From the NCBI GenBank assembly GCA_000995185.1, contig LCET01000005.1, positions 84,277 through 148,276 on the forward strand: DNA of 64,000 nt. The letters are read 5' to 3'. Numbering within the stretch: position 1 is the first letter of the stretch; every line of letters starts with the position of its first letter. The notes below the pieces were generated by a model. That model worked only from the letters and a program-made list of their open reading frames with translations. It did no database searches and was not told the origin of the DNA. Positions 2,779-27,464 of the stretch are shown one piece after another. This DNA comes from Candidatus Woesebacteria bacterium GW2011_GWC1_42_9 (GTDB lineage: Bacteria > Patescibacteriota > Microgenomatia > UBA8517). The position numbers and the translations under genes are program-made.

Positions 2779-3111
2779 CTCAATCAGTAGTGCCAATAAA
2801 GCGGATAATAGGCCGATGTCGCGTACGGTAATCGCATTAATTCCGGAAACCAGTAAAACACTCGCTAGGTGAATTACCGCCAAACTAGCTGGTACCCAAA
2901 GTTTATAATCCAAAAGAAGCCATAGCCCTACAACAAGATCAAAGATCGCCGTTGTCTGCATCATCATTTTTATATCAACCGGAAAATAAGTTAAAAACGA
3001 ATCATTTATATACCCTCCCCACCCCACCGGGTCTTTCAAAATTAAAAGTCCGACCCACAAAAAAGTAATCGCTAAACCAACTCTCAGGATATGAAGGCTA
3101 CTTCCTTTCAT
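2743..3111 (-). CDS. Small four-TM membrane protein, possibly DoxX-like
   Basis: Likely start MKGSSLHILRVGLAITFLWVG..., giving a 4-nt overlap with the VKOR gene. The C-terminal ...RDSNPHEL is the antisense read of the tRNA-Leu T-arm, so the true C-terminus is uncertain. Confidence 0.4.
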   Translation of the reverse strand: MKGSSLHILRVGLAITFLWVGLLILKDPVGWGGYINDSFLTYFPVDIKMMMQTTAIFDLVVGLWLLLDYKLWVPASLAVIHLASVLLVSGINAITVRDIGLLSALLALLIECRGRDSNPHEL

Positions 3112-3509
3112 ATGAATAAATATATCAGAGCCATCAGCCAAATTGTCACAGCACTCATCACACACCAAAAGCACCATTTCTTAATTACAAATTTCTGAAG
3201 AAAAACAAAGTACACCGAGACTAGCGAACCAGAAAAAAGCATTATCCCAGATAGATTCTGGATCAAATTTTCTGAGCCAATTCTAAGGACCAAAAGCGAG
3301 ACGATAAACCCAGTCAACAAATAAAATACGAGCCCCCAAACATCATTGTGAATCCCAAGAAGCTTATTATATTTACTTTCTAAAACGATGTGGCACTCGC
3401 TTCCCAAGAAGCATGCCGGTTTATCGCTTTTTAACCTTTTCTCTATCAAATATCTCGTCTCGGAAACTCCGATGGCGGCAAGAGTAAAAATAAGGGCAAG
3501 GGACGTCAT
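3108..3509 (-). CDS. VKOR-family (vitamin K epoxide reductase-like) thiol oxidoreductase
   Basis: Loop Cys pair ACFLGSEC, plus the active-site CFWC inside a transmembrane helix near the C-terminus. Confidence 0.75.
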   Translation of the reverse strand: MTSLALIFTLAAIGVSETRYLIEKRLKSDKPACFLGSECHIVLESKYNKLLGIHNDVWGLVFYLLTGFIVSLLVLRIGSENLIQNLSGIMLFSGSLVSVYFVFLQKFVIKKWCFWCVMSAVTIWLMALIYLFI

Positions 3510-3940
3510 TATTCAACTATAAGCACTCCTTCCATCCCGGCTTCTCGATGCCCCGGGACAGAACAATAAAAAACATATTCACCAAGCTCACTAAAAACAA
3601 CTTCGATGGTCTGAGACTCGCCGCCTGATATTGAATTTGTCTTAAATTCCCCGCCTTCAAACACTAAATCATGCCTCATTTTCCCATTATTTTTAAAAGT
3701 AATCTGTATTTTTTCTCCTGCCTTTATCTTAATTTCTTGGGGATTAAATTTAAATTCCGAGGCAGAAATAACAATTTCATTACTCACCACCGTATCCACC
3801 GCATCGGTCTCAACAGGGGTCGGCGTTAAAAAATAGTAGCCCAACCCGAACAACGCTATTACCACAACTAACCCGGCGACAATATAGACTAGCATACTTC
3901 TCGATTTACTCTTTATCTCCTCTTTTTGCGTCTCTTCCAT
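3509..3940 (-). CDS. Membrane-anchored type-1 blue-copper (cupredoxin/plastocyanin-like) protein
   Basis: N-terminal TM anchor. The C-terminal YCSVPGHREAGMEGVLIV is the canonical C-x-x-P-G-H-x-x-x-G-M copper site. Confidence 0.85.
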   Translation of the reverse strand: MEETQKEEIKSKSRSMLVYIVAGLVVVIALFGLGYYFLTPTPVETDAVDTVVSNEIVISASEFKFNPQEIKIKAGEKIQITFKNNGKMRHDLVFEGGEFKTNSISGGESQTIEVVFSELGEYVFYCSVPGHREAGMEGVLIVE

Positions 3941-5237
3941 AGAACTTTATTCTATCACCCCTAAAGTGTAAGGCAATTTGGCCAAGCGGTCCATTCCTGT
4001 GTTTTGAAATATCCAAATACATATTTTCAAGCTTTTCCTCATCTTCCCTCCATAAAAACATAACCACGTCTGCATCCTGCTCTATGCTACCGCTCTCGCG
4101 GAGATCTGCCAACTGCGGCCGCTTCGTACCCCTTTGTTCAACTGCCCTTGAAAGCTGGCTTAGGGCCAAGACTGGTATTTTCAGCTCTTTGGCCAAGTTT
4201 TTTAATCCCTGCGAAATTTCGGAAACTTCCTGCACGCGGTTCTCAAGGTTCCGACTAATAGCAAGCTGTAAATAATCAACAATTATGAGCTCCACCCCTG
4301 ATTCCACTTGGAGCCTTCTTGCCTTTGTCCGCATTTCCAAAATCGAAAGCCCCGGGGAATCATCAATAAATAGCGGCGCTTCAGCAAGCTCACCCATCGC
4401 ATTTGAAAACTTAGTAAAATCATCCTCACTTAACTTGCCTGTCTTTAATTTCCAGGCGTCAATATCCGCCTGCGCGACAAGAAGCCTATCCACCAACTCT
4501 TCACTGCTCATCTCAAGCGAGAAAAACCCAACCGGGATTTTTTCGTTAACCGTCAAATGCTGAGCCATGTTAATTGCCAAAGTTGTCTTCCCTACTCCTG
4601 GCCTGGCCGCGAGAATCAATAAATTTGAGCGCTGCATCCCGGCAAGCATGCTATCTAGATCACTAAATCCAGTTGGCAATCCGCGAAGCCCGGTATCAAG
4701 CTTACTTAGTTCATCAAGCCGATCAAACGAATCAGCCAGTGCGGCCTTTACTGGTCGAAAGCTTTTTGCCAGATGCTTTTGGGTAAGCGAGAACACTTCG
4801 CTCTCGGCTTTGTCCAACAGCTCCCCCGCGGCCAGTCCCTCATCAAGCGACAGATCAAACAACTTTGCCGCCGCGGCCATAACGCTTCTTTTTGTAGCCT
4901 GGTCTTTCACGATCTGACCGTAGTGCTCGACATGGGCGGCAGTGGGGACTTTGTTGGCTAGCTCCGCCAAATAGCTCGCCCCTCCGATCTCCTTCAAGGA
5001 TTTATTCTTCTTAAGTTTCTCAGAAACCGTTAATACGTCGACGGGGACCCGGTCTTCGTAGAGCGCCAAGATGCTATCGTAAATTTTTCGGTGCCGATCA
5101 TCATAAAAATGCCCCGGGATCAAAAACTCCGCCACCGCGATAATCGCATCTTTATCCAAAAGCAATGCTCCAATTACCGAAGCCTCGGCATCATGAGAAT
5201 GGGGCGGGATCCTTACTTGAAGAGAGGGGCTCGCCAT
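3906..5237 (-). CDS. dnaB: Replicative DNA helicase DnaB
   Basis: N-terminal PPHSHDAEASVIGALLLD, Walker A GVGKTTLAINMA, RecA-like C-terminal domain. Confidence 0.95.
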   Translation of the reverse strand: MASPSLQVRIPPHSHDAEASVIGALLLDKDAIIAVAEFLIPGHFYDDRHRKIYDSILALYEDRVPVDVLTVSEKLKKNKSLKEIGGASYLAELANKVPTAAHVEHYGQIVKDQATKRSVMAAAAKLFDLSLDEGLAAGELLDKAESEVFSLTQKHLAKSFRPVKAALADSFDRLDELSKLDTGLRGLPTGFSDLDSMLAGMQRSNLLILAARPGVGKTTLAINMAQHLTVNEKIPVGFFSLEMSSEELVDRLLVAQADIDAWKLKTGKLSEDDFTKFSNAMGELAEAPLFIDDSPGLSILEMRTKARRLQVESGVELIIVDYLQLAISRNLENRVQEVSEISQGLKNLAKELKIPVLALSQLSRAVEQRGTKRPQLADLRESGSIEQDADVVMFLWREDEEKLENMYLDISKHRNGPLGQIALHFRGDRIKFYGRDAKRGDKE

Positions 5238-5945: not shown

Positions 5946-6878
5946 ATGCGGAAAGAAATCCTATTAGCAATCATTCTTGGCAGTGTCCTTGGCGGCGCTT
6001 TGGCTTTTGGGATCTGGAGAATGAATGATTTTTTTGACCGAAAACCAGATCAGAACGAGCCCCCACCTAGCGATCGCAAATCCCCACCCAAACAAAACAC
6101 CGGGTTTTTCCTTGAAATATCCGAGCCGGCAAACCAAGCCGTGATACCCGCCACAAGCGTCTCTGTGGAAGGCTACACTTCCCCCAATGCACTCATCACC
6201 ATTACAACTAATGATGAATCATCTCTCACTCTTTCCGATACAGAAGGCAGGTACCGCTCAGAGGCAGAACTTAGCGGGGGGGTAAACCAAATTGAAGTCA
6301 CAGGATTTGACAATAGCGGGAAATCGCTGAGCAAAAGCCTTTTATTAGTCCATTCGACGTACTTAAAAAACGGCGAACACGGGATTTCCTTAATCGGGAC
6401 AGTTACAGATTTGAGCGAATCAACAATTCAAATAAAAACTTTATCCGGAGAAATTGAACAAATTTCGGTCAACAAAGACGAAACCACCTATGCAAATATC
6501 ATGAAATCCTCTCGCGAAATTGAATTCACCGATCTTGCTCTTGGTGACTTTATTGTCGCTATCGGAAAATCAAATGGCAATGATATTATCGAAGCCCAAA
6601 GGATTTTAGTTACGACGGCTCTATCCGAATCAACCATCCGGGCAGTATGGGGAGAAGTAAAAACTTATAACACCAAAGAATTTATCATCAAGGATATTGG
6701 CGGCAATGACTGGTCCATCGACGCCAAAGGAGGAGTGGAAGTGACCAAACTAGTTGAGGATGAGTTCAAAAAGGCAAAGCTAACAAGCCTCAAAGAGGGA
6801 GATACCATCATCGTCATCGGAGAATTTGATAAAGAAGAAATCGACGCAAACCAAATCCACCTGGTTACAAATAATTGA
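5946..6878 (+). CDS. Hypothetical exported or membrane-anchored protein
   Basis: N-terminal TM helix, Pro-rich linker, then a beta-rich extracellular portion. Confidence 0.5.
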   Translation: MRKEILLAIILGSVLGGALAFGIWRMNDFFDRKPDQNEPPPSDRKSPPKQNTGFFLEISEPANQAVIPATSVSVEGYTSPNALITITTNDESSLTLSDTEGRYRSEAELSGGVNQIEVTGFDNSGKSLSKSLLLVHSTYLKNGEHGISLIGTVTDLSESTIQIKTLSGEIEQISVNKDETTYANIMKSSREIEFTDLALGDFIVAIGKSNGNDIIEAQRILVTTALSESTIRAVWGEVKTYNTKEFIIKDIGGNDWSIDAKGGVEVTKLVEDEFKKAKLTSLKEGDTIIVIGEFDKEEIDANQIHLVTNN

Positions 6879-6990
6879 CAGGTTTAAACAATTAAAGTAC
6901 AATTTCTTAATATGAAAATATTATTTGTTTCTAAGGTTCATCATACCCTGGCCTAAAGGCTGGTGGTTTTTTGCGTGAACTAAAACAATC

Positions 6991-7014
6991 ACCAGCCGGA
7001 GGGCTGGTTTTTTA
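6991..7014 (+). terminator. Rho-independent terminator (accagcc-ggag-ggctggt + T6)
   Basis: 7-bp GC-rich stem followed by TTTTTT. An alternative partner ggctggtg+T6 lies at 6957-6970. Confidence 0.6.
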
Positions 7015-7027
7015 GTGGGAAAAATTT

Positions 7028-7101
7028 GGTGGGCGTGGCTTAAAGGATAAAGCGTTCGCTTGTGAAGCGAAAGATTGGGGGTTCGAGTCCCCTCGCCCAC
7101 C
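7028..7101 (+). tRNA. tRNA-His(GUG)
   Basis: Encoded G-1 giving an 8-bp acceptor GGTGGGCG/CGCCCACC, anticodon loop TTGTGAA, T-loop TTCGAGT, discriminator C. Confidence 0.9.
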
Positions 7102-7130
7102 CAAAGTCCAATTGGTGAAAGGAGCAGACA

Positions 7131-7745
7131 ATGGAACGCACGATCCTAAGATGGATTTTGTTCCACGGCCACTGGACCCACAATGAAGGAGATTTTTTCT
7201 CCTTCATTGTAATTGAAGTAAAAATGACAGAAATGGATAACAACTATTTAAATCAAGAGATAGAGCGCCTGACAAATTGCGCTTTATCTGTGTTGGAAAA
7301 TTATGACCGGGTGCAAGATAACCCTGATCGGGACATTCTCCCATCAATTGTGAGTCAACAATTATCTACTGAGGGGAAAATTACTTTATCGCTATTTGCG
7401 TGCCCGTCGTATGATCCATCTGCATTAACTTCCAAAACACAGGAGAACTATATCCGGACGGAAGTTAAGGGAACCGATCTATTCACTCCAAGAGTTCCGA
7501 GAATAAATAAACTAAGAGACGATCTTCGTAAATTAGGAATTCAAACTGATATCGTAATCTTTCTTGGAGATTCTGATCCTAATACATATGTATTACCAAT
7601 TCTAAGTAAATACGGAGTGGTAGCCGACCAAGCTAAATTAAACGAACGGCAGGCGCAATATGCACAAAGTTTCGAATCAAGAGCCAAAAGCTTATTGGGA
7701 GAAGACGTTGTTGTGTTTTCCTTGGCGAAAGAGTGTCTTCATTGA
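7131..7745 (+). CDS. Hypothetical protein, probably the 5-prime part of a frameshifted gene
   Basis: 204-aa ORF that overlaps the next ORF (7660-8046) by 86 nt in another frame. Confidence 0.4.
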   Translation: MERTILRWILFHGHWTHNEGDFFSFIVIEVKMTEMDNNYLNQEIERLTNCALSVLENYDRVQDNPDRDILPSIVSQQLSTEGKITLSLFACPSYDPSALTSKTQENYIRTEVKGTDLFTPRVPRINKLRDDLRKLGIQTDIVIFLGDSDPNTYVLPILSKYGVVADQAKLNERQAQYAQSFESRAKSLLGEDVVVFSLAKECLH

Positions 7746-8046
7746 AAATTTAAATCCAAACTACACCACCAAAGAACTTAATAACGAAGTAGATTTCTTA
7801 AGGAAGCTATTCTCAACTAAAGGCCCCTACAAGGGAATATTTAATATTGCCGAGGCTGATCTTGAGCTTATGGCAAAAGAGAAGTTTCGGTCATACGGAG
7901 AACAGGGAAAATTAGTCCAGGAGATTGGCGGCGGGATACTCCTCCAAACTGAAACTCCTTGGCTTTTGAGAACCAAAATGCTAAAAAGCGGCGGATCATC
8001 CTTCGCCGCAATTTATCCCTGGATCAGGAAGGAAGAGCTTTCCTGA
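7660..8046 (+). CDS. Hypothetical protein, probably the 3-prime part of the same frameshifted gene
   Basis: 128-aa ORF in the +1 frame relative to 7131-7745. The junction is near a T-run at ~7710-7745. Confidence 0.35.
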   Translation: MHKVSNQEPKAYWEKTLLCFPWRKSVFIENLNPNYTTKELNNEVDFLRKLFSTKGPYKGIFNIAEADLELMAKEKFRSYGEQGKLVQEIGGGILLQTETPWLLRTKMLKSGGSSFAAIYPWIRKEELS

Positions 8047-8076
8047 AATTTTTTTGATAGTATAAATCTACTATCT

Positions 8077-8976
8077 ATGTCGAGAGCTCGCTATAAAGCT
8101 TATCTATATATGCTTATTTCCTCAGCCATATGGGGAGTGGCGGCGCCGATGATCAAATTTACTCTTGAGGGAATCGACGTCTTGCCATTTCTCACTTACC
8201 GCTTCATTGTTGCCGGTCTATTTTCCCTCCCATTTGTATTGTTCACTAATCTTAAAATCCCAAACAAGTCCAGAAATTTACCATTGGTTATTCTTTATGG
8301 ACTTTTTGCTTTTACTATTGCCCTGGGCTTTTTATTCGTAGGACTAAAACAATCCACTGTTTTAGATTTAACTCTGATTACAATTATTTCTCCCTTAATT
8401 GCGGTGGTGGGAGGAGCGCTCGTTTTCCGAGACACTATCACCAAGCGTGAGAAAATGGGGATCGTAATCGCGCTTTTGGGAGTCATCACCGTGACCCTCC
8501 TTCCCCTTTACAAGGGCGAGGACGGCGTCCATTTTTCCGGGAACATTGCCCTTTTGACCTTTTTGGTCATCGACGTGGTCGGAGTATTAATCGGCAAAAA
8601 GCTTTTAAAAGATGGGGTGCATCCTGCCGCTCTGACTCACTGGGGATTTTTAGTGAGCGGGCTTGTGGTGACACCCTTTGCTATCGCTACAATTGGAGCA
8701 GGTCCACTGTGGGGCACAATCACCACACTTGAGCTGCAGTACCACCTCGGCGTCTGGTATATGGCGCTCATTTCCGGAACACTGGCATACTATTTATACG
8801 TCCTCGGTCAGAAAACAATTGAGGTCAGCGAAGCCGCACTTTTCAAATACTTACAGCCGATTTTTGCTATTCCTCTGGCAGTCTTGTGGCTTGGGGAAAA
8901 ATTCACACTACTTTTTGTAGTAGGGGCTGTAATTATTACTATCGGCATATTTATTGCCGAGAGCAAGCGCCAATGA
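8077..8976 (+). CDS. EamA/DMT-family permease
   Basis: Ten hydrophobic segments with the EamA two-repeat architecture. Confidence 0.75.
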   Translation: MSRARYKAYLYMLISSAIWGVAAPMIKFTLEGIDVLPFLTYRFIVAGLFSLPFVLFTNLKIPNKSRNLPLVILYGLFAFTIALGFLFVGLKQSTVLDLTLITIISPLIAVVGGALVFRDTITKREKMGIVIALLGVITVTLLPLYKGEDGVHFSGNIALLTFLVIDVVGVLIGKKLLKDGVHPAALTHWGFLVSGLVVTPFAIATIGAGPLWGTITTLELQYHLGVWYMALISGTLAYYLYVLGQKTIEVSEAALFKYLQPIFAIPLAVLWLGEKFTLLFVVGAVIITIGIFIAESKRQ

Positions 8977-8992
8977 TATAATCGTAAGTTCA

Positions 8993-9301
8993 ATGAAAGC
9001 AAAAATCCACCCGAAATGGTATCCGGAAGCTAAGGTAACTTGTGCCTGCGGGAACACTTTTACCCTTGGGGCCGCCGTGCCGGAAATTAAAATCGAAGTC
9101 TGCAGTGCCTGTCATCCTTTTTATACAGGTCAAATGAAATTCCTTGACGCCGCAGGGAGGGTGGATGCGTTCATGGCTAAAAGAGCCAAAGCAAGTAAAA
9201 AAGTACTATCCAAAGCTCAAAGGAGGGAAATTAAAAGGACCAAGCGCATCAAAGAAGAACTGGCAAAGCCGGCATCACTCAAGGAACTTCGAAAAAAATA
9301 A
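8993..9301 (+). CDS. rpmE: 50S ribosomal protein L31 (Zn-ribbon type) with a Lys/Arg-rich C-terminal extension
   Basis: MKAKIHPKWYPEAKVTCACGNTF...CSACHPFYTGQ...GRVDAF matches L31, followed by a ~35-aa basic tail. Confidence 0.85.
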   Translation: MKAKIHPKWYPEAKVTCACGNTFTLGAAVPEIKIEVCSACHPFYTGQMKFLDAAGRVDAFMAKRAKASKKVLSKAQRREIKRTKRIKEELAKPASLKELRKK

Positions 9302-9994
9302 ATGCAAACAGCGTACCTTGAAATTAGAGGCGCCACAGGGGGCGACGAAGCAAAAATATGGGCAAACGACCTTCTTCGCATGTACCACAGGTTCGCAATC
9401 AAAAAAAATTGGAAGACTTCCCTGATTAATGAATCTGTCCTTAAAATATCCGGAGAGGGAGCCTTTGATCTCCTGAAAGGGGAATCAGGCGTACACAGAG
9501 TGCAAAGGGTCCCGCAAACTGAAAAGCGCGGCCGCATCCATACTTCTACCGCTACAGTTGCAGTCCTCCCGGAAATCACGGAACACGAGATAAAAATAAA
9601 TAACGGCGATATCGAGTGGCAATTTATCAGGGCCTCCGGCGCCGGAGGACAAAACGTAAATAAAGTTTCCACTGCCGTAAGGCTCACTCATAAGCCAAGC
9701 GGGATCGTGATAGTTTCCAGACAGGAACGGGAGCAACTAAAAAACCGAAATATCGCCCTCTCCCTTTTGCGGTCAAAGCTGTGGGAGATAGAAGAAGAAA
9801 GGAAATTAAAAACAATTGAAGGCTACCGCTCGGCGATCGGGCGCGGGATGAGATCAGAAAAAATAAGAACTTACAACTACCACCAATCACGGGTCACCGA
9901 TCACCGGATCAAAAAAAGTTTTGGGAATCTTGAGAGCATTGTCGATGGAAACCTAGATAAACTTATCTCTACTCTGACGAGCCAGACAAAATAA
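9302..9994 (+). CDS. prfA: Class-I peptide chain release factor, RF1-type, lacking N-terminal domain 1
   Basis: [12 protein letters not shown]..., [26 protein letters not shown] (PxT motif = PQT) and [10 protein letters not shown] (GGQ). The ORF starts right after the L31 stop at the domain-2 boundary, so ~105 aa are absent. Confidence 0.8.
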
Positions 9995-11123
9995 CAGAAA
10001 GCTCAAGTGTTTCTTCACCCCTCCATAATTCCACTTCCACACTGTCGCCAACTTTCTTTTTCTTGATCGCGCTTGCCAGATTATTGTCTTCATTTAAATC
10101 TTCCCCACCAAACTTGGTAATGATGTCCCCCTCTTTTATCCCGGCCTTGTCCGCCCCGGATCCCGCGACAACAGAAGCAATGTAGGCACCCTCCGGCACC
10201 TCATTTACTATTGCGCTTCTTTTGCTTATCATCTGGTACTCCACCCCTAAAAACGGCTTTGAGGCAAAAGATCCATCCGTTTCGAAATGGTTAAGCGCTT
10301 CCTTTAGAACATTTATAGGGATGGCAAAGCCGATATTTTCTGCCCCATCGGCAATGGCCACATTTATCCCGATCACCTGCCCGGCAGAATTTAGAAGCGG
10401 CCCGCCGCTATTGCCCGGGTTTATCGCCGCATCTGTTTGAACCACATCATCTAATTCCTCGACGTATCCTTCAAAGGCGCTCCCGGCGGTTATCCCCCGG
10501 CCAAGCCCGGAAATTACTCCGGTCGTAACCGTATGCCTAAATTCTCCCAAAGCAGTCCCGATAGCCATCACATATTGCCCAACCTTCAGGTTTGAAGAAT
10601 CCCCCAACTCAACCGGTTGAAGCACTTGCCCCGCTCCCGCGAGGTCAATCTTAATTATCGCCAAATCATTTGCCGGATCGCGCTTAATATCGGTGACTTC
10701 ATACTCTTTATCATCACTCGTGATAACTTTATAAATTGCTCCTTGTACCGAAACAACGTGTTTATTTGTGACAATTAATCCATCGCGGCTAACAATAAAT
10801 CCTGACCCGATATCCTGAGGCTTTCCTCCTTCAAAACGCGAAGTAAATCCTTGAAAAAAATCAAAACCCATTACCTCTCTCTGGGGGAACTCGACAGAAA
10901 CTGTCACCACAGACGGAGAAACACGCTCGGCGATATCTATAGTCACAGACTCCTCCACCAATACTTTCTGTCCGTTTGCACCAACCGAAGTTCTCGGGAG
11001 CCAACTATCGAGGGTATCAAATCCAAAAATCCTATCCGCGATCGCTCCGCCTACCACCGAGGATACGATCACCACCCCCACCGCAAGTCCAAACATGAAA
11101 CTTCTCAAATTAAATAATTTCAT
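9969..11123 (-). CDS. HtrA/DegP-family serine protease with PDZ domain
   Basis: N-terminal TM, trypsin-like GNSGGPLLN catalytic-serine motif, C-terminal PDZ. Confidence 0.9.
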
Positions 11124-11136
11124 TAGAGAAATTAAA

Positions 11137-12357
11137 TCAGTTAGTGATTAAGTAGTCAATCGCTTTGGCAAGCTGTTCATCTTCCGGGGTATCAAAATCA
11201 TCTTCAATTTCCACATCCGGCAGAAGCCCCTGGTCATTTACCCAATTCCCCTTTGGTGTGAGCCATTTGGCGATTGTCACATGGAGCCCTGCGCCGCTAT
11301 CAAGATACATCGGCTCCTGGATCGTTCCTTTCCCAAAAGTAGTCATGCCAATAATATCTGTCCCAAGATTTTCTCGCAAAGCACCCGCTAAAATCTCGGA
11401 GGCCGAAGCACTCCCGCCATCAGCTAAAATAACAAGCTTTTCGCCCTTAAGTCTCCCAGGCCCATTGGCCCTAAGTTCCTCAGTATGGGCGTTCCCGCGG
11501 TCTTCGATCACGACCAACTCATTTACATCCATAAAGTCGCCGCTCAAATCAACCGCTCCCTGCAAGTAACCCCCTGGGTTCCCCCTTAGATCAAGGATCA
11601 CGCCGCTTAAGTTATTGTGAAGTAAAATCTCCAAAACCGCCTTATCCCACTCGGCCTTGGTCTCAGCCCCAAATTTCATCACGCGAAGGTGAGCAATATC
11701 TTTTGTTTCCCCCACAAATGCCAGACTGACACTGGGGACATCAATACTCTTTCGAACCACATCCACAATGATGGGTTCATCGCTTCCTCCACGAAGAAGG
11801 GTAAGATTCACCTTTGTACCAGCTCTCCCTCGGATAAGCTGAACTGCCTCGGGCAGTGTGATCCCTGTGGTCCCGCGCTCTATGTCCTTTTCTTCATCTT
11901 TTATCCCGACGATATAGTCCCCAGCTTTAATCCCTGCCTCTTCGGCGGGAGTGCCCGGAAGAGGAGAAATGACGGCAAGTTGTTGGCCGCGAAAGCCAAT
12001 CTGGATCCCCACTCCCTCAAAATTTCCACTCAAATCTTCCTGAGTTACCTCATTTTCCCTGGGCGTCAAAAACACGGTATACGGATCCCCCACTGCCGCG
12101 ACCATCCCCTTGATCGCCCCATAAATCATATTAGCTTCATCTAGCTGGGAATTATCATAATAATTAGCGTCTAGGGTGTCCCAAATATTCCAAAATAATG
12201 AAAAATCTAAATCGCGATTTTTGGGAGATTCTCGATTAATAGTTATTTTGGGGACACTTGAAGCAGCTATTGAATATCCTAGTAAAAAGAAAAAAGTCCA
12301 TGATGTAAGGACAACAATCAGCTTTCTCACTTTTGGTAAAGTTAATTTAGGGATCAT
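11137..12357 (-). CDS. S41-family C-terminal processing peptidase
   Basis: PDZ domain plus the S41 catalytic region ...ILDLRGNPGGYL... and the Ser/Lys dyad context. Confidence 0.85.
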   Translation of the reverse strand: MIPKLTLPKVRKLIVVLTSWTFFFLLGYSIAASSVPKITINRESPKNRDLDFSLFWNIWDTLDANYYDNSQLDEANMIYGAIKGMVAAVGDPYTVFLTPRENEVTQEDLSGNFEGVGIQIGFRGQQLAVISPLPGTPAEEAGIKAGDYIVGIKDEEKDIERGTTGITLPEAVQLIRGRAGTKVNLTLLRGGSDEPIIVDVVRKSIDVPSVSLAFVGETKDIAHLRVMKFGAETKAEWDKAVLEILLHNNLSGVILDLRGNPGGYLQGAVDLSGDFMDVNELVVIEDRGNAHTEELRANGPGRLKGEKLVILADGGSASASEILAGALRENLGTDIIGMTTFGKGTIQEPMYLDSGAGLHVTIAKWLTPKGNWVNDQGLLPDVEIEDDFDTPEDEQLAKAIDYLITN

Positions 12358-12530
12358 CGTGCCGAATACGGAAGAAGGCCTAAAAACCTTGCTCTTTTAA
12401 TCGCTCTAACAAGTTGCCTTTGACTCTTTGGGGATAAGCCAGTTTTTGCCCGGCCTAAAATCCTCGCACGATCGCTCATATAGTGAGCCAACTCCTCATA
12501 ATTTTTATAAGAAAACTTTTCTTTTTTCAT
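12354..12530 (-). CDS. rpsR: 30S ribosomal protein S18 (58 aa; below the ORF-track cutoff)
   Basis: Manual translation gives MKKEKFSYKNYEELAHYMSDRARILGRAKTGLSPKSQRQLVRAIKRARFLGLLPYSAR, matching the S18 core. Its TGA stop overlaps the ATG of the S41 peptidase (ATGA). Confidence 0.8.
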   Translation of the reverse strand: MKKEKFSYKNYEELAHYMSDRARILGRAKTGLSPKSQRQLVRAIKRARFLGLLPYSAR

Positions 12531-12534
12531 TTAT

Positions 12535-12996
12535 TTAAAAAGGGATGTCATCCGCCGGCGCCTCTTTTTTAGGCTCTGCCTTTTTGGCGGGCTTAGCTTC
12601 ATCAACGCTCAAATCCTCCGGAATATCTTGGGGAGTGGGGGCGCTAGTTCCCCCACCTTCGCCAATCCTTTCCAGAAGGAGCATGTCGCTAATTACAATT
12701 TCTGTAGTCGTCCTTGGGTTCCCGTCTTTGTCTTCCCATTTTCTGGTTTGGATCCTTCCCTCTACAAATACTCTCTTCCCCTTACCCAAAAGCTGGGAGC
12801 AGATCTCGGCCAATTTATCCCAAGCCACAATCCGGTGAAATTCCGCCTCATCTTTGGTATCGCCAGATTCAGTTTTCCACTGCCTATTCGTCGCCACGCT
12901 AAAAGTGCACACGGCCGTCCCTTGAGGAGTATAGCGAAGCTCGGGATCCCGAGTCATATTACCTATCAAAGTTGCCCTATTTAAACTTCTTGCCAT
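12535..12996 (-). CDS. ssb: Single-stranded DNA-binding protein
   Basis: OB-fold N-terminus, Gly-rich linker, acidic C-terminal tip ...DDIPF. Confidence 0.95.
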   Translation of the reverse strand: MARSLNRATLIGNMTRDPELRYTPQGTAVCTFSVATNRQWKTESGDTKDEAEFHRIVAWDKLAEICSQLLGKGKRVFVEGRIQTRKWEDKDGNPRTTTEIVISDMLLLERIGEGGGTSAPTPQDIPEDLSVDEAKPAKKAEPKKEAPADDIPF

Positions 12997-14321: not shown

Positions 14322-15266
14322 TTATTTTTCTTGATGATGCAGATAATTTCTAGCAATCTTCCCAGCGATTATAGCTTTAACAGACGACTTCTCTATCACT
14401 TCTCTTACATTTTCCCACTGGCCAGGGAAATTAAGATATGTTTCAAGGTCTCTATAATCAACCCAAATGTGAGCTCTGATTTCCTCATCTTGTGTTTTTA
14501 TCTCGGTATTCGTGCCTGAAAAACGAACAATAAATTGTATTTGCTTTTGCCCTTTATATTGGTTTCCTTTTTTTATCTGCTGAACCACAACAAAATCCGG
14601 GAACTCATATTTGTTTATAATTTTTGATTTTTCTATAATTTCAAATTTATCAGTACCCAATTCTTCTTTTAATTCACGAAAGACTGCTTCTTCGGGGGTT
14701 TCTCCTTCCTCGATACCTCCACCAGGCGTGTTCCAATCAGTATCGCCATAATTTATCAACTGAAGTAAAAGTATTTGATTATTACTATTCAAAATAACAG
14801 TATTAACTTTCTCCCGGTAAACCAAGCCCCCTTTAGCCTTCAAGTAGTTTGCGTAAGCGTTTTGGAAAGCCTCTTTGGCATAAATTCTGATTGCCTCTCC
14901 AAACTGGTTGCCATTCTTAACTTCATCAGAAACATTTTCGGGAAGGTGAACTTCAACTCCCTCTCCTATAAATTCATCACCGCTTTGGTCAACTAAACAG
15001 CTAAAAGTCACTAGGTGATACCCTTCGCCGTAATCATGAAGCCCTCCCTCCAAGCCAATCCAGAAGTCAGCATCAGGCTTTGCTTTTCTAGCATTAGTTG
15101 CCCGGTTCCTAGCACCTTGCTGGGTTGTTTCTTTATCAAGCGGTTGATCAATAACTTGAGAACTTACCCTTATTTTTTTTACTTCAGCACGTAAATTAAG
15201 TTCTCTCAATGCCTTTTGAACTATATTTGTTTTTATGTCGCTCGATGAACCGATAATTACTTTCAT
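14322..15266 (-). CDS. Fusion of a YjjX-family inosine/xanthosine triphosphatase with a NUDIX hydrolase
   Basis: N-terminus ...ETTQQGARNRATNARKAKPDADFWIGLEGGL aligns with E. coli YjjX. The C-terminus carries the Nudix box GGGIEEGETPEEAVFRELKEELG. Confidence 0.75.
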   Translation of the reverse strand: MKVIIGSSSDIKTNIVQKALRELNLRAEVKKIRVSSQVIDQPLDKETTQQGARNRATNARKAKPDADFWIGLEGGLHDYGEGYHLVTFSCLVDQSGDEFIGEGVEVHLPENVSDEVKNGNQFGEAIRIYAKEAFQNAYANYLKAKGGLVYREKVNTVILNSNNQILLLQLINYGDTDWNTPGGGIEEGETPEEAVFRELKEELGTDKFEIIEKSKIINKYEFPDFVVVQQIKKGNQYKGQKQIQFIVRFSGTNTEIKTQDEEIRAHIWVDYRDLETYLNFPGQWENVREVIEKSSVKAIIAGKIARNYLHHQEK

Positions 15267-15439: not shown

Positions 15440-16039
15440 TCACCGCGTAACCACTAACAAAAAATGCGGATAAGGTAAAAAACTTTTTAGGTTTATGCGA
15501 GTTTTTACACCAAACCCCAACTCCGTAAGCATCCTCTTATATCCATCTCGGGAAAGAAAATGAAGGCCTTCGTATTTGGTAAAGGTAAACTTAAATAATC
15601 GAGTCATGATCGTTTCCTCGATTTTCAGGACTTTATAAATAAAGCCTGATCCGTTCCCATTTTCAACTACAATCAAACTGCCGTTTTTTTTCAAAAGCTT
15701 CCGGCATATCTCAAAAAATTTACCTTTCTCCCGGCGCGGGAAAAGGTACAAAACATCGATCACAATAATGCAATCAAATCTTACCTTCCTATTTATTAAA
15801 TCGGATAGCTCGCATACTTCAAATTTTAAATTTTTTAGATGGCTATATTTACGCGCATGCCGGATCTTTATCTCTGAAGGATCAATCCCGGTTACTTGCC
15901 TATCTAAAGATCTTTCCGCCAATATTTTCGAAAACAATCCATGGCCACAGCCAACGTCTAGTATCTCCCCCTTTGAGGGCACAAATTTTTCTATTTCACC
16001 AAAGGGGCAAATGAGTGGACGGACAAATTCATAAAACAT
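15440..16039 (-). CDS. Class I SAM-dependent methyltransferase
   Basis: Motif I ILDVGCGHGLFS, plus a later acidic loop. Confidence 0.75.
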   Translation of the reverse strand: MFYEFVRPLICPFGEIEKFVPSKGEILDVGCGHGLFSKILAERSLDRQVTGIDPSEIKIRHARKYSHLKNLKFEVCELSDLINRKVRFDCIIVIDVLYLFPRREKGKFFEICRKLLKKNGSLIVVENGNGSGFIYKVLKIEETIMTRLFKFTFTKYEGLHFLSRDGYKRMLTELGFGVKTRINLKSFLPYPHFLLVVTR

Positions 16040-17807: not shown

Positions 17808-20534
17808 TTAATCTGTGGCCATGCTTGAACTGATACTTGCAAATTGAATAAAGATAAAAGCGAAAACAATTGCCATAACAACTGGTGCAAATTTAGCTAA
17901 ATAATCTTTCTTGCCAGGAACAAATCTCCTGAGGAGTAAGGAATTCCCAACAACCGAAATCGAAGAAAATGCCATCGCCAAACCCGCCAGCTCTGGCTTA
18001 AGAATCAACCCAAACCCTGCAAAGACTCTTGCGGCAACTGGAATGCCAATGACATTGTAGAAAAGCGCGAAAAACATGTTTTGCTTAATCTTTGACATTG
18101 TGGTGCGAGATAAATCTATCGCGCCGACAACATCTCGAAGGTCGTTTTTAATAATTACAATACCACCAGTTTCCATTGCCACATCAGTTCCGCTCCCCAT
18201 GGCTATCCCTAAATCCGCCTGAGCTAAAGCCGGGGCATCATTAATTCCATCTCCTACCATCGCCACTTTTTTCCCTTGTTCTTGCAACTTTCTAACCTCG
18301 TTTGCTTTATCTTCAGGGAGTACTTCAGCTAATACGTTTGTAACGCCAACTTGTGCAGCAATTGCCTGCGCAGTACGCTCATTGTCTCCTGTAATCATAT
18401 ATATTTGAATCCCGAGCTTAGTCAACTTTTCAATTGCTTCTTTTGTCGTGTCTTTAACAATATCAGCTACAGCAATCAACCCTAGTACTTCTTTTTTCGT
18501 GGCAAGTACCATCACTGTTTTCCCTTGGCCCTCAAGGGACTGAATCATATTCATCTGATTAAAAAGCGGTAACCCCAATGTGTCGCTTGCTAGTTTTGGC
18601 TTTCCAAAATAATACGTATTTCCATCCATCTGCCCTTCCACGCCAAATCCAGGGATTGCCTTAAAACCAATCACATCACTAAATGCTACGCCTTTTCCTG
18701 AAGCATATGCGCAAATTGCTTCCGCCAACGGATGCTCTGATTGCTTCTCCAGTGAGGCTGCAATTTCCAAAACAGCGCTGTTGCCAATAATATCCGTTAC
18801 TTCAGGTTTCCCCTTTGTAATCGTCCCCGTTTTATCAAACACAATCACATTAATCTTGTTTGCCTTTTCCAGAGGCTCTCCCCCTTTCACCAAAATCCCA
18901 TGTTCAGCTCCCTTTCCGGTCCCGACCATAATAGCGGTAGGCGTCGCAAGTCCTAAAGCACATGGACAAGCAATCACTATTACAGCTGTAAATGCCATCA
19001 GAGCAAAAGAGAGTGTTGCGCCAAATACAAAATACCAAGCGATAAAGGTCAAGACTGCTGTAACTATTACTGCGGGTACAAAATAAGCGGAAATCCGGTC
19101 CGCAATGGCCTGTATTGGAGCTTTTGATCCCTGGGCATCTTCGACTAGCTTTATTATCTGGGAAAGGGTAGTTTCTAAACCAACTCTTGTTGCAATAAAC
19201 TCAAAACTTCCAGTTTTATTTAATGTACTACCGATCACAATATCTCCTTCATTCTTCTCAACAGGCATGCTCTCTCCTGTTATCATTGATTCGTCGATCG
19301 AAGAAGAACCTTTGATAATTTTTCCATCCACCGGAACCTTTTCTCCGGGACGAACAATAACAACATCACCTTTCATCACATTCTCTAGGGGAATATCAAT
19401 CGTCACTCCATTTCTTATTATTCTTGCCGTTTTGGCTTGGAGCCCCATTAGTTTTCTTATTGACTCAGAAGTCCGGCCTTTAGCCTTTGCTTCCAACCAT
19501 TTTCCCAAAACAACAAAAGTAATTAAAAACGCAGCCGTTTCAAAATAGAGCTCAGGAATTTTGGCCCCCATAAGGCCAATTACGGAATAATTAATCGCGT
19601 AATAAGAAAAAAAATTAACAACACTATAAAAATATGCAACCGAAGTGCCAATCGCAATCAAGCTATCCATGTTGAATGTCCTCATGCGAAAGCCCGACAA
19701 AGCCCCTTTATAAAAACTAGCCCCCACAATAAACTGCACAGGTGTTGCCAAAATAAACGAAATAATTCCTACATAAGGAAGTAAAATCCCACCGAGAGGG
19801 ACACTAGAAAAGAAGTCAAAAAGCATGAAATATACCATCGGCGCACTAAAAGCAAAACTCCATAAAAATTTTCTAGACAAACCCTTAATCTGCGCCAACT
19901 GTTTCTCGGCATCTTCTTTGGTGTTTGTTGGATCTGAAACTACAGCTTTATATCCAGTTTTCTCAACGGCGTTAATTAAATCGCTCTCTTTAATTTTAAC
20001 CTGATCAAAAATCACTGTTGCTTTTTCGGCGGTGAAGTTTACTTTCGCCTCGCTTACTCCCGGAACTTTCTTCAAAGATTTCTCTATAATCCCCGCACAA
20101 GACGTACAGTGCATCCCATACAATAATAATGATGTTTTCTTCTCTCCTTCTTTATTCTCTATACCTCCTTCTTTAAGTTTTATTTCACCGTCAAACTCAA
20201 TTTCTCCCTTCTCGTTTTTTGTTATTTTTCCACTTATTCTTAAAGAGTCTTGCGCTCTAAAGATAATTTCTTGAAGTGGGCTTCTCCCATTACTATGCAA
20301 AACATTACCACTATTACTAACTATTGCTGTATAGCCTGCCTTCTTGATCGCATTTTTTATAACGTCTGTCGACAGACTTTTACTAGCCCGAAGACTACCC
20401 TTTCCTGTCTCGAAATCAACTTCTACATGCTCCACGCCATCAATTTCACCGATCTCATCGCGTATAAGCATCTCGCATGACTGACAATGCATTCCGTTAA
20501 CCTGAAACTTTATTACTCCCGCAGTTTCACTCAT
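17808..20534 (-). CDS. copA: Cu(I)-translocating P1B-type ATPase with two N-terminal HMA domains
   Basis: GMHCQSCE and [11 protein letters not shown] motifs, TM CPC ([12 protein letters not shown]), [13 protein letters not shown], and the YN...MxxSS Cu(I) signature in the last TMs. Confidence 0.9.
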
Positions 20535-20733
20535 TTACAATTTTATACAGGGTACCCGATAATACTTCATCTATGTCTTCGCTTGTGACATCCCACCCAG
20601 CAGTTACACAAACTGCTCCAGTTTTATAATTTACTTCCACAGAATCCACTCCGGGAATAGTGCCAATGCGTTTCTCAATTATTTTTTTACAAGCCGGACA
20701 ATGAGTTCCTTGAATTTTATAAACAAATGATTT
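20527..20733 (-). CDS. copZ: CopZ-like HMA copper chaperone
   Basis: [25 protein letters not shown]... Single HMA fold with a CxxC. Start taken at the internal Met. Confidence 0.8.
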
Positions 20734-20737
20734 CATA

Positions 20738-22549
20738 TTAGTTAACAGTAATGCTTCCTCGAGAAATTCCCATCGCACAAGTAATGTTATATGTACCGGT
20801 GCTACCTGGTGTAAATTCAAAGACAATCGTCTGCCCCTTAGTAAACACCTCAATTTTCTTGGTGAGACTTGGGATAGTCACACTACCCATACAGCCCTGA
20901 CCGTCATCCTTTGCCTCAATTTCAAACCGTACAGGTTGGTTAACTTTAACCGTGAATTTATTAGGAGAGATATCCCCGAGAGACGTATAAGTAGATTTCA
21001 ACACTTGAATGTTTCCTTGTGTGATGGTTTGACCAGCGGGTTGATTTGAATTCTGTGTGACTGCTGATTTAGCCCCGCATCCGCAGCCACCCCCATTTGC
21101 ACTGCACGACGAAGAAGCACTCAGCACCGTATTAGCAGCTAGAGTCGAAGGTGTAGCCACGTTTGAATTTTCATCGACCACATTAAATGAACCAGTATAC
21201 ATACCCATAGAACACGAGAAACGGATTGTGCCGGCTTGGGCGGGAGTAAATTCAAAGATGTTTTCGCCTAATTCCAGTCCTCTGCGAATACCTAATTGTT
21301 GCGATACGATGCTACTGGCGCATGAATAAATATCTTTTGAAGTAACAATCCATTTAACAGGAATGTCCTTCACAATCGTAAATTTATTTGGTGAATATCC
21401 AGATGAACTTTGTATCATCCGAACTTCTTGAACTCCATTGACAAGTTTGACATTAGGATCCTCTATGGCACTACTCGTAGAGGCGCTAATGGTAAATACT
21501 CCGAGTACTTTGGGGCTGATACCCAATAAATTTAAGCCATTTGAGACATTAAATAAAGCCAGCAAAATCACTACCACGCCAGCAGTTTTGAAAAATAGTC
21601 TTGCCCCCCGGCCCTTGACAACTGAAGTTAGTCCACCGACTCCAAGTAATCCCGGAGCAGTCCCAAGGGCAAAGACACCCATTGTTAAAGAACCTGAAAT
21701 GGGACTCCCGGTACTCATTGCATATAACTGCATTGCTTGTGTAAAGCCACAAGGTAAAAAGAAAGTCATTGCACCCATGACTACTGAATTTTTGTTACTA
21801 TATTCGCCGAAGGATTTCTTCTTAATCCCGAGCTTGCGGGATAAACTCTTAGGAAGAGTAAAAGATGCTTTTTTCAAAATAGGAAAGATGTCGATTAACT
21901 GTCCGCCAAGAAGCAGCATGACCAGCCCAACGGCAACAATCAGCATTCCCAAGACTGAAGTCGAAAGCTGAAATAATGAACCTGCAAAACCAATCAGTCC
22001 CCCAAGGGCAAAAAAGGATACGATACGTCCTAGATTAAAGAATAGATGGGGCTTAAACTTTTCCAAGGAACTGGCATAAGGGTTTTGAGCTGAGAAACGA
22101 GCGGAGGCGCCAAGCACAAGACCGCCAACTAGTGCCATGCATGTCGAAACTCCAGCGGTAAGGCCAACTAAGAAGACAATTGGCAAACTGCTAAAACTAC
22201 CAGAAATTGAGCTACTTAGGTTAAAAATTCCCAATGTCTTGGCAACTAAAAACAAAGCTGTAGCAATAAAAAAAGCAATTCCTAGATCGAGATAATCTCT
22301 ACGGTTACGGGAGAAAAAATGAATTTTCCCATCCTGGCCGATTCCATACCCTGCACTTTCTACCGCTTTTGCAACTGCACCTTCATCTAATTCACATTCA
22401 CAGTCAATGTTTGCGATGCCTGTTCGATGGTTAACAGAAACTTTTTTCACTCCCGGAACTTTCTTTAACTCATCCTCAATTAATATTTCACAAGACCGAC
22501 AGTGCATGCCCTTAATATGAATTTTTTGATTTTTCATGAATCTAAGCAT
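20738..22549 (-). CDS. HMA domain - DsbD_2/CcdA-like thiol membrane domain - two C-terminal cupredoxin-like repeats
   Basis: N-terminal GMHCRSCE. Then ~8 TMs with single Cys in helices (VSTCMALVGG, FFLPCGFTQAM). Then two ~100-aa repeats (Y/ISPNKFT... ending FSCSMGMYTGSFNVV and ITCAMGISRGSITV), separated by a Cys/Gly patch SSSCSANGGGCGCGAKS. Confidence 0.7.
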   Translation of the reverse strand: MLRFMKNQKIHIKGMHCRSCEILIEDELKKVPGVKKVSVNHRTGIANIDCECELDEGAVAKAVESAGYGIGQDGKIHFFSRNRRDYLDLGIAFFIATALFLVAKTLGIFNLSSSISGSFSSLPIVFLVGLTAGVSTCMALVGGLVLGASARFSAQNPYASSLEKFKPHLFFNLGRIVSFFALGGLIGFAGSLFQLSTSVLGMLIVAVGLVMLLLGGQLIDIFPILKKASFTLPKSLSRKLGIKKKSFGEYSNKNSVVMGAMTFFLPCGFTQAMQLYAMSTGSPISGSLTMGVFALGTAPGLLGVGGLTSVVKGRGARLFFKTAGVVVILLALFNVSNGLNLLGISPKVLGVFTISASTSSAIEDPNVKLVNGVQEVRMIQSSSGYSPNKFTIVKDIPVKWIVTSKDIYSCASSIVSQQLGIRRGLELGENIFEFTPAQAGTIRFSCSMGMYTGSFNVVDENSNVATPSTLAANTVLSASSSCSANGGGCGCGAKSAVTQNSNQPAGQTITQGNIQVLKSTYTSLGDISPNKFTVKVNQPVRFEIEAKDDGQGCMGSVTIPSLTKKIEVFTKGQTIVFEFTPGSTGTYNITCAMGISRGSITVN

Positions 22550-22587
22550 ACAAAATCACTCATTAAGATTTTATTAGGATCGCGGGG

Positions 22588-23259
22588 TCAATCTGTCCTT
22601 TCTATCACTCCATCTTTATATTCATAAACAAGCGGGTGGCCCAGAGGAAGATTTACGAAGGAAATTTTATCATCCCCAATGTTTTCTAAAAATTTAATAA
22701 CTGCTCGCAGAGTATTACCATGGCCGACAATGAGATTTGTTTCCCCGCGTTTTAACCGGGGGATGATCACTTTCTCAATATACGGGACAACTCTATCATA
22801 TACATCCTTCAGGCTTTCCCCATGAGGAGGTCTATCGAAAAAACCTCTTCTCCACTTAAGTACCTGCAATTTGCCATATATTTCCGCAACCTTTTTTTTG
22901 TTCATCCCTTGCAACGCCCCATAAGCTCGTTCATTTAGAGCTCTGTCCGTATACACATTAATAATTTTCTTGCTTAAATGAGGATTAGCATCATCAGGAA
23001 TATCGTATTTTTTATCACTTTGATGCTGAAAAACACCTATCTTATTTTGTTTAGACAGGATTACTGCCAAGGTTTCGTGTGCTCGTTTGAGATGAGAAGT
23101 AAAGATGGCATCATAGTCAAAATTTTTACAGTGCTTCGCAACTTTATGTGCTTCTCTAATACCCTTCTCCGACAGAGGTACATCTAGCCAACCGGTAAAT
23201 ATATCCAGCTCGTTAAATCTAGATTGACCATGCCTCACAATCACTAATATCCCTTTCAT
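22588..23259 (-). CDS. gpmA: 2,3-bisphosphoglycerate-dependent phosphoglycerate mutase
   Basis: RHGQSRFN phosphohistidine motif and LIVGHGNTLRAV. Confidence 0.85.
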   Translation of the reverse strand: MKGILVIVRHGQSRFNELDIFTGWLDVPLSEKGIREAHKVAKHCKNFDYDAIFTSHLKRAHETLAVILSKQNKIGVFQHQSDKKYDIPDDANPHLSKKIINVYTDRALNERAYGALQGMNKKKVAEIYGKLQVLKWRRGFFDRPPHGESLKDVYDRVVPYIEKVIIPRLKRGETNLIVGHGNTLRAVIKFLENIGDDKISFVNLPLGHPLVYEYKDGVIERTD

Positions 23260-25367: not shown

Positions 25368-25450
25368 ATATTTTATTGTAATACTTTTTTAGTAACCACA
25401 CATACAGTTGAAATTACCGCCGTCAGTTACTACAATGAGTAATAACTTTT

Positions 25451-25861
25451 GTGCTCTACACGCAGAATAAAAATTTACTTATTGCTCTTATAATTGGAGC
25501 AGTTGTTGTTGCCGGATTGAGTTGGAAAGTGCTTTCCAGTTCTAACTCTGGCGCGAGCGCGGCCAGCGAGGCAGTAACATTGACTACTGATCCTAACCCA
25601 TTACGAACTGGGCCGGCGACTCTTATTATTGATGTAAAAGACAAAGCTGGCGGATCAATTAATGATGCAACCGTATCGTTCGATCTCAATATGACCACTA
25701 TGGACATGGGGAGTCAGCGGGGTAACGCTATTTTTCAAGGTAACGGCAGATATATAGCCTCTGGAAGAATAAGTATGCGTGGCCCCTGGAAAGTGACAAT
25801 AAAAGTCACCATGCCGGACGGCGTTGTGGTCAATAAAGATTTTACTGTGAATGTTCCTTAA
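25451..25861 (+). CDS. YtkA/FixH-like exported beta-sandwich protein with Met cluster
   Basis: GTG start, N-terminal TM, ...DLNMTTMDMGSQ...MRGPWKVTIKV pattern typical of YtkA-like proteins that are often linked to copper. Confidence 0.55.
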   Translation: MLYTQNKNLLIALIIGAVVVAGLSWKVLSSSNSGASAASEAVTLTTDPNPLRTGPATLIIDVKDKAGGSINDATVSFDLNMTTMDMGSQRGNAIFQGNGRYIASGRISMRGPWKVTIKVTMPDGVVVNKDFTVNVP

Positions 25862-25910
25862 TGTTTGTGGCCGCCACTTTTCATCATCCAAAGGTGCATT
25901 AACGGGCAAG

Positions 25911-26003
25911 TCAGTAGCGGAAAATAATCACCGCTACAACTGCTAGAGCCATCAATCCTAGGCAAATACCAAACCATTTTAAGAGTGAATCATAATTATC
26001 CAT
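25911..26003 (-). CDS. Candidate 30-aa single-TM peptide (not in ORF track)
   Basis: GGAGGTG SD sits 5 nt before the ATG. Translation is MDNYDSLLKWFGICLGLMALAVVAVIIFRY. It lies 40 nt downstream of the histidine kinase on the same strand. Confidence 0.3.
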   Translation of the reverse strand: MDNYDSLLKWFGICLGLMALAVVAVIIFRY

Positions 26004-26042
26004 ATTCACCTCCATTATAAGAAAAGAAGGATTAGGAAATCA

Positions 26043-27461: not shown

Positions 27462-27464
27462 ACT

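Follow-up and report, generated by a model that had tools for sequence, protein, structure and literature searches.

Can a release factor 1 (RF1) that lacks the whole of its first domain be the ordinary reader of UAA and UAG in a bacterium? This question is raised by a gene on contig LCET01000005.1 of Candidatus Woesebacteria bacterium GW2011_GWC1_42_9, a groundwater organism with a small genome, of which we analyzed one stretch of 64,000 nucleotides, called the window throughout. Directly behind rpmE, the gene of ribosomal protein bL31, the window encodes a release factor of 230 amino acids. Judged from sequence comparison, this gene is very probably an ordinary prfA whose product is a class-I RF1 reduced to domains 2, 3, and 4. 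The elements concerned are:

8993..9301, plus strand: rpmE, encoding bL31 of 102 amino acids (Pfam Ribosomal_L31, E = 6.6e-26, residues 1-63; NF000612, 88.8 bits)
9299..9304, plus strand: TAA-ATG junction, the rpmE stop codon (9299-9301) and the prfA start codon (9302-9304) abutting in the same frame
9302..9994, plus strand: prfA without domain 1, ATG start, encoding a 230-amino-acid RF1 that consists of domains 2, 3, and 4 only

A prfA gene that starts at domain 2

An alignment made with MAFFT places M1 of the protein opposite E108 of the E. coli RF1 (reference sequence identical to PDB 5j30), three residues ahead of the first beta-strand of domain 2, and E. coli residues 1 to about 107, the whole of domain 1, have no counterpart. 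A phmmer search of the PDB pairs residues 4-226 with residues 88-321 of the free RF1 structure 1rq0/2fvo (E = 1.4e-66); on E. coli RF1 the alignment runs from residue 110 to 345 and takes in residues 3-226 of the protein. The Pfam PCRF match is confined to profile positions 101-194 of 194, the Pfam RF-1 match is near-complete (profile positions 2-116 of 116, E = 3.9e-36), and the two RF1 equivalog models are matched from position 105 to 341 of 347 (NF001859, 311 bits) and from position 114 to 350 of 361 (TIGR00019, 300 bits). Domains 2, 3, and 4 are 41-48% identical to the solved RF1 structures, and the switch-loop region is present. Canonical RF1 has two further parts besides domain 1 that are missing here, namely a domain 2 hairpin and some 11 residues at the C-terminus.

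9428..9433, plus strand: site of the 10-residue deletion in the domain 2 hairpin (E. coli residues 153-162), placed by alignment with E. coli RF1
9581..9907, plus strand: domain 3 with its flanks (Pfam RF-1, residues 94-202), containing the GGQ motif

An AlphaFold2 model of the protein reached a mean predicted local distance difference test score (pLDDT) of 76.7 and a predicted template modelling score (pTM) of 0.68. Compared with free or pre-accommodated RF1 and RF2 (1rq0, 1zbt, 6orl, 1gqe, and 2ihr) the template modelling (TM) score normalized to the query was about 0.7 over domains 2-4, versus about 0.43 with the open, ribosome-bound RF1. The protein is thus predicted in the compact state, like the free factors.

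Much of this had been proposed in a sequence-only reading of the locus, which made no mention of the hairpin and C-terminal deletions, and its observations hold throughout. That reading had placed the start of the protein at the boundary of domains 1 and 2, which agrees with the position of M1, and had reported that PQT, GGQ, and the C-terminal domain are kept, as the motif positions and the Pfam and NCBIfam matches now bear out. Its statement that the ATG follows the rpmE stop codon directly is correct to the nucleotide. It had also held that the DNA upstream encodes a Lys-rich L31 tail and no domain 1. Indeed the 306 coding nucleotides of rpmE (8993-9298) make up a complete L31, with the core at residues 1-63 followed by the Lys-rich tail, and a hidden Markov model (HMM) built from 30 RF1 domain-1 sequences matched none of the window's six reading frames (best E = 0.52).

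Decoding and catalytic residues

If the protein is a canonical RF1 apart from the lost domain, as the same reading had claimed, the residues used for reading the stop codon and for hydrolysis should be in place. Every decoding and catalytic residue checked is present, and three of the motifs are:

9338..9349, plus strand: N-terminal tip of helix alpha5, G13-G14-D15-E16, corresponding to E. coli G120, G121, and E123
9512..9520, plus strand: PxT tripeptide 'anticodon', P71-Q72-T73; in 77 aligned forms from the candidate phyla radiation (CPR) neither P nor T varies
9644-9652, plus strand: GGQ motif, G115-G116-Q117, invariant in the alignments

In an alignment of 33 short, 25 intermediate, and 19 full-length CPR forms (the length classes are described below) the following positions, in E. 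coli numbering, do not vary: G120, G121, E123, Q185, R186, P188, T190, E191, R195, H197, T198, S199, and G233-G234-Q235. We take these residues, from structures of RF1 on the ribosome, to serve stop-codon reading or catalysis, with G120, G121, and E123 reading the first base of the stop codon. Among the stop-codon contacts tested I196 is the exception and varies conservatively between I, V, and L. In a separate alignment of 32 sequences M1 as well as the functional residues is invariant. The PxT tripeptide, the GGxE tip, Q185/R186, IHTS, and GGQ are shared with the canonical RF1s of E. coli (PDB 5j30, 2b3t) and T. maritima (1rq0).

Family models point the same way. The RF1 models give 311 bits (NF001859) and 300 bits (TIGR00019) versus 213 bits for the RF2 model TIGR00020, which has a cut-off of 370, and the site that carries SPF in RF2 reads PQT. 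The PrfH model TIGR03072, whose cut-off is 166.65 bits, gives 72.7, and rtcB is absent from the neighboring genes. The ArfB model NF006718 gives 56.7 bits against 100, with a match limited to about residues 94-130. ArfB, ICT1, and C12orf65 have the GGQ catalytic domain in common with the 230-residue protein; they are, however, devoid of domains 2 and 4, both of which are present here, and a basic C-terminal tail replaces codon reading. PrfH (also called RFH) is closer in that it likewise has no domain 1 and combines GGQ with a version of the codon-recognition domain (PMC1586002, PMC6514570). It differs in lacking the PxT/SPF signature, in being paired with rtcB, and in rescuing damaged ribosomes, whereas PxT is invariant here and no rtcB lies nearby. 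The sequence-only reading had set the protein apart from both PrfH and ArfB. This distinction stands, given the PxT motif and the scores below the cut-offs; the reason given, that both lack the codon-reading motif, has to be amended for PrfH, in which the signature and not the whole domain is missing (PMC6514570, PMC1586002).

The short form is real

KKS77701.1 / KKS96991.1 / UniRef100_A0A0G1FPN5, which are records of Candidatus Woesebacteria bacterium GW2011_GWB1_43_14 and GW2011_GWC1_42_9 (CPR, Microgenomates), match the protein at 100% identity, and 20 contigs are on record as carrying it. Four loci that we fetched come from at least three independent data sets (SRR1658465, SRR5855237, and ERZ27254728) and show 0 mismatches over window positions 6302-12994 (6.7 kb). 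An assembly frameshift, which the sequence-only reading had named as a point to check, is thereby excluded as the cause of the short RF1, and no upstream extension was restored at any of these loci. More broadly, an artefact of assembly or annotation, or a pseudogene, in which a normal prfA has lost its 5′ part to a frameshift or mis-join, might be suspected in a metagenome-assembled genome and for an open reading frame (ORF) that abuts its upstream gene without a spacer. We give this idea practically no credence. The four loci carry the same sequence, length and N-terminus are shared by more than 120 distinct homologue clusters, the DNA upstream encodes a complete L31, and the functional residues are strictly conserved.

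Length classes and repeated loss of domain 1

Whether the truncation is lineage-wide, a question also raised by the sequence-only reading, can be answered from the relatives. In a set of 5.8 billion clustered proteins, the best 120 matches all measure 223-248 amino acids and are 71-76% identical to the window protein. Those that carry a name are called 'peptide chain release factor 1', 'PCRF domain-containing protein', or 'peptide chain release factor-like protein' and belong to Woesebacteria/Patescibacteria. A set of representatives at 50% identity was uninformative on distribution; at that level the short forms are merged into a handful of clusters, and artefactual tandem-duplicated RF1 entries (P0121 and P0122) rank among the best matches. 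We therefore rely on a scan with one genome per GTDB species, which yielded 80 loci from 80 different assemblies. ORF analysis of these loci gave three classes:

Short RF1, n = 36: about 224-270 amino acids, domain 1 absent
Intermediate RF1, n = 22: about 298-337 amino acids, domain 1 partial
Full-length RF1, n = 19: 346-399 amino acids, domain 1 complete

Of domain 1, the intermediate class has retained no more than the C-terminal half. The 10-residue hairpin deletion was found in 25 short forms, including those of the Microgenomates type, in 16 intermediate forms, and in 0 full-length forms, by the length classes used in that comparison. This co-occurrence of the two deletions may point to a functional link between the hairpin and domain 1.

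The length classes do not sort into separate groups of relatives. Over domains 2-4 two short forms, L064 and L065, share 77% identity with a full-length form (L068), but only 51-52% with the window protein. Another short form (L081) is 73% identical to the full-length L075, and L083 is 77% identical to the intermediate L076. In a simple neighbor-joining tree of 223 columns the length classes are interleaved. On these sequence comparisons, domain 1 appears to have been lost independently at least three or four times. Very likely, Woesebacteria and other Microgenomates have the truncation as a fixed trait, and it arose independently in other Patescibacteria, with intermediates.

Some individual loci are of interest in their own right. 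Seven of them (L023-L026, L028, L030, and L032) have RF1s of 334-337 amino acids in which about 26 residues are inserted into domain 2 just ahead of the 'ESGVHRVQR' strand, e.g., TELAVFQLIKEKNEEKLLETEEKQEL, and this intermediate clade also has the 10-residue hairpin deletion. At the start of the RF1 of L013 (about 3938-4000) an 11-residue tandem duplication, DSVILEIHGAT twice, leads to a short form of 245 amino acids. Several loci, L005, L006, L008-L011, and L014 among others, are Microgenomates-like rpmE-prfA loci whose RF1 is 54-71% identical to the Woesebacteria protein. The TPA_asm titles on such loci ('uncultured Gammaproteobacteria', 'uncultured Pseudomonadales') look like placeholders or errors, titles such as 'uncultured Candidatus Saccharibacteria' on TPA_asm metagenome-assembled genomes seem unreliable too, and none of them were used for taxonomy.

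Gene order and the junction with rpmE

At 65 of the 80 loci rpmE lies directly upstream of the release factor gene on the same strand, and this applies to short, intermediate, and full-length forms alike; full-length prfA of related Patescibacteria, encoding canonical RF1, is likewise found downstream of rpmE. At full-length loci and at one intermediate locus the next gene downstream encodes PrmC (TIGR03534, 204-242 bits overall and 206-242 bits at the full-length loci, against a cut-off of 199; L048, L056, L061, L084, and L051 are loci where PrmC follows prfA). The full-length loci thus show the classical order rpmE-prfA-prmC, and therefore the short genes occupy the prfA slot. We regard it as very probable, from gene order and sequence, that the 230-residue protein is the prfA orthologue and not a paralogue of the PrfH or ArfB kind.

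Downstream of the gene the loci differ. Canonical prfA loci are followed by prmC, whereas prmC is absent directly downstream of prfA in the window, and among the short-form loci, those in which an ORF follows on the same strand showed no PrmC there. The window protein also differs from canonical RF1 in missing the RF1 equivalog cut-offs. A methyltransferase encoded further on in the window (15440-16039) was considered as PrmC and rejected, with 25 bits for TIGR03534 against the cut-off of 199. The neighbors of prfA in the window are genes for EamA, L31, HtrA, and CtpA, the third of which is convergent:

9969..11123, minus strand: gene for an HtrA-type serine protease (trypsin-like and PDZ domains), its 3′ end overlapping the 3′ end of prfA by 26 nucleotides

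On the upstream side, the AGGA closest to the prfA start is found at 9282-9285, 16 nucleotides ahead of the ATG. Expression of prfA is probably coupled to translation of rpmE through the TAA-ATG junction.

Since rpmE and prfA share one frame with a single TAA between them, readthrough would give an L31-RF1 fusion of 333 amino acids, in which the Lys-rich L31 tail could substitute for domain 1. The relatives argue strongly against this. The gap between the two genes in relatives is mostly -14 to +28 nucleotides, as is usual for the short forms, with values of -14, -4, -1, 1, 2, 5, 8, 9, 18, 23, 26, and 28 nucleotides among others, and the frame is not consistently kept. Because the in-frame junction is not conserved, we reject the readthrough fusion, and the shared frame is probably a coincidence. 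In addition TAA is the commonest stop codon in the window, and the L31 extension also occurs together with RF1s that keep part of domain 1 (L016 and L022). A fusion of this kind is therefore highly improbable.

The L31 extension was also considered as a compensation for, or remnant of, domain 1 independently of readthrough, and was ruled out: it is present beside the intermediate RF1s of L016 and L022 and does not track with the loss. As for bL31 itself, the tail (9191-9298) is a Lys/Arg-rich C-terminal extension of about 35 amino acids past the Pfam core. L31 measures about 95-142 amino acids in most Microgenomates-type loci and about 69-85 in many others. bL31 is among the ribosomal proteins described as enlarged in CPR in a published survey (PMC9297842).

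Is there a second release factor or a separate domain 1?

We searched with RF1 by tblastn in the window and in 84 loci, and looked at DNA fetched beyond both window ends. No second release factor gene was found in about 82 kb, consisting of the 64-kb window, about 9.4 kb before its start, and about 7.8 kb past its end. None was found in the 80 related loci either, where the search covered flanks of about 4 kb with narrow search patterns and could miss a copy on other contigs. A second prfA is made unlikely because all length classes sit directly downstream of rpmE. We infer that the 230-residue protein is the sole RF1 of the genome, and the natural short form is apparently the sole RF1 of whole lineages.

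The alternative is that the short protein is an extra, specialized paralogue which acts in rescue or quality control in the manner of PrfH, with a full-length RF1 encoded elsewhere. Such a view could draw on the missing domain 1 of PrfH (PMC1586002, PMC6514570), on scores under the RF1 equivalog cut-offs, on the NCBI name 'peptide chain release factor-like protein' carried by relatives, and on a search region of about 82 kb in a genome of roughly 0.7 Mb. We consider it unlikely. The RF1-specific decoding residues including PxT are all invariant, the PrfH model stays far below its cut-off with no rtcB nearby, and the gene holds the very place behind rpmE that full-length prfA takes in related genomes. 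The flanks of the 80 loci add a weak argument, weak on account of the narrow patterns and of other contigs that could be missed.

A different way to keep domain 1 would be a split gene, with domain 1 made elsewhere as a separate small protein that associates with the 230-residue core. In favor of this, domain 1 forms a flexible helical module that is independent in structure (PMC1586002), and most of the genome lies outside the region read. The domain-1 HMM was null in the six frames of the window, although domain 1 is weakly conserved and a diverged copy could be missed by it. The intermediate forms, moreover, show progressive erosion of domain 1 and not its relocation. Taken together a split gene seems very unlikely to us, still less likely than a paralogue, and we keep to a prfA that has simply lost domain 1.

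Stop codons and a proposed mode of termination

The window holds 73 non-overlapping ORFs covering 92.8% of its length, which stop at TAA (37), TGA (24), and TAG (12). The anticodon of tRNA-Trp is CCA, and EF-P and similar proteins end at TGA with complete C-terminal domains. TGA is therefore a stop codon and the genetic code is standard. UAG is in regular use, and therefore RF1 activity is needed. An RF2 gene should be found elsewhere in the genome, beyond the region read.

By homology to canonical RF1, the short RF1 would enter the ribosomal A site at UAA or UAG. The stop codon would be read by the tip of helix alpha5 (G13, G14, and E16) together with Q68/R69, P71-x-T73, and I79-H80-T81. Domain 3 would then swing into the peptidyl-transferase center, where GGQ (residues 115-117) would hydrolyse the peptidyl-tRNA. 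In canonical factors domain 1 touches L11 at its N-terminal domain and bridges to domain 3 of RF3 (PMC3677378). Since domain 1 is absent, neither the contact with the L11 N-terminal domain nor the docking of RF3 would take place. The short RF1 would have to do without the L11/RF3 axis both in binding to the ribosome and in leaving it, and would dissociate unaided; its independence of RF3 and L11 is what we infer from the architecture.

A laboratory counterpart exists. E. coli RF1 from which domain 1 had been deleted releases peptide codon-specifically in vitro and works in vivo, but is unable to stimulate RF3 (Mora, Zavialov, Ehrenberg and Buckingham 2003, Mol Microbiol 50:1467, as summarized in PMC1586002). 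This engineered factor has the same architecture of domains 2-4 and is the direct experimental model for the behavior to be expected of the short RF1. The two differ in that the E. coli form is a laboratory deletion in a host that has RF3, whereas the 230-residue RF1 is natural and conserved and carries additional lineage-specific changes. A natural RF1 without domain 1 in CPR/Patescibacteria was not found described in a full-text literature search, and the passages searched in a broad survey of release-factor evolution (PMC6514570) and in the survey of CPR ribosomes (PMC9297842) make no mention of one.

Several points weigh against our reading. The scores of 311 and 300 bits stay below the RF1 equivalog cut-offs of 400 (NF001859) and 423 (TIGR00019); this shortfall arises because the first 104 or so (NF001859) to 113 (TIGR00019) model positions are unmatched. 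The release activity at UAA and UAG is a prediction from homology. Genes for prfB, prfC, and prmC were not located in the 82 kb or so around the gene, read from a contig recorded as 707,797 bp, and beyond this region a second full-length prfA or a separate domain 1 may, formally, still lie. The exact number of independent losses is uncertain, the tree being crude. Finally, the loss of domain 1 may or may not be tied to an absence of RF3 in this genome. RF3-less lineages such as Thermus and Mycoplasma keep domain 1, and RF3 loss alone therefore does not explain the loss of domain 1. Probably a further factor is in play, either traits of the CPR ribosome or selection for small proteins. RF3 was absent from 72 of 191 genomes, notably from small ones (PMC1780047), and CPR proteins are generally shorter, while bL12 and bL31 are larger there (PMC9297842).

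Other features of the window

A shortened translation protein is also seen in the rpsB-tsf-frr cluster. EF-Ts (44247-44708, minus strand) has 153 amino acids only and matches positions 1-77 of 204 of Pfam EF_TS; it seems to be another translation factor of reduced length, the second in the window. The tRNA-Trp(CCA) gene (61747-61820) is overlapped at its 5′ end by 10 nucleotides of an ORF for a GIY-YIG protein (85 amino acids, 61499-61756).

A metal-handling cluster occupies 17808-28133 on the minus strand. It comprises two P-type ATPases with HMA/HMBD domains (17808-20534 and 23256-25367), a DsbD_2-cupredoxin-HMA protein (20738-22549), and a histidine kinase with a response regulator (26043-28133); a YtkA-like protein (25451-25861) is encoded within the cluster on the plus strand. 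A cupredoxin and a VKOR protein are encoded separately from it (3108-3940).

Upstream of rpmE two plus-strand ORFs, 7131-7745 (204 amino acids) and 7660-8046 (128 amino acids), are without a Pfam match and overlap by 86 nucleotides in different frames. One gene caller gave genes of 204 and 111 amino acids for 7131-8046, which may be one frameshifted gene or two overlapping ones. On the minus strand, 14322-15266 is an ORF of 314 amino acids in which NTPase_I-T (DUF84) is fused to a NUDIX domain.

Implications

The short RF1 sequences have been public already, under generic names only. As they score below the RF1 cut-offs and bear such names, annotation pipelines can report RF1 as missing in these genomes. 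TIGR00019 is a member of standard bacterial marker sets, and as a marker it would depress completeness estimates for Patescibacteria.

Shortened translation proteins are general in CPR, and the short RF1 fits this pattern; the RF2 of these lineages may be reduced likewise. A recurrent, lineage-wide natural loss of domain 1 is noteworthy, and not shocking given the deletion experiments of 2003. A naturally optimized minimal RF1 would be useful to structural biologists and as a component of translation systems that are reconstituted or engineered.

We favor, with moderate confidence, the view that a three-domain RF1 is the only reader of UAA and UAG in large parts of CPR, that termination there proceeds without contact to the L11 stalk or RF3, and that domain 1 was lost several times. 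If this is true, domain 1 would be a dispensable accessory module in vivo, and compensating changes in CPR ribosomes or in the on- and off-rates of the factor would be implied. Domain 1 had been called non-essential from laboratory deletions; here evolution would have removed it repeatedly in organisms that use UAG and UAA. A comparison of short, intermediate, and full-length forms could reveal whether the role of domain 1 lies in recruitment through L11, in recycling by RF3, or in control of the switch from the compact to the open state, and could also show what compensates for the domain where it is missing.

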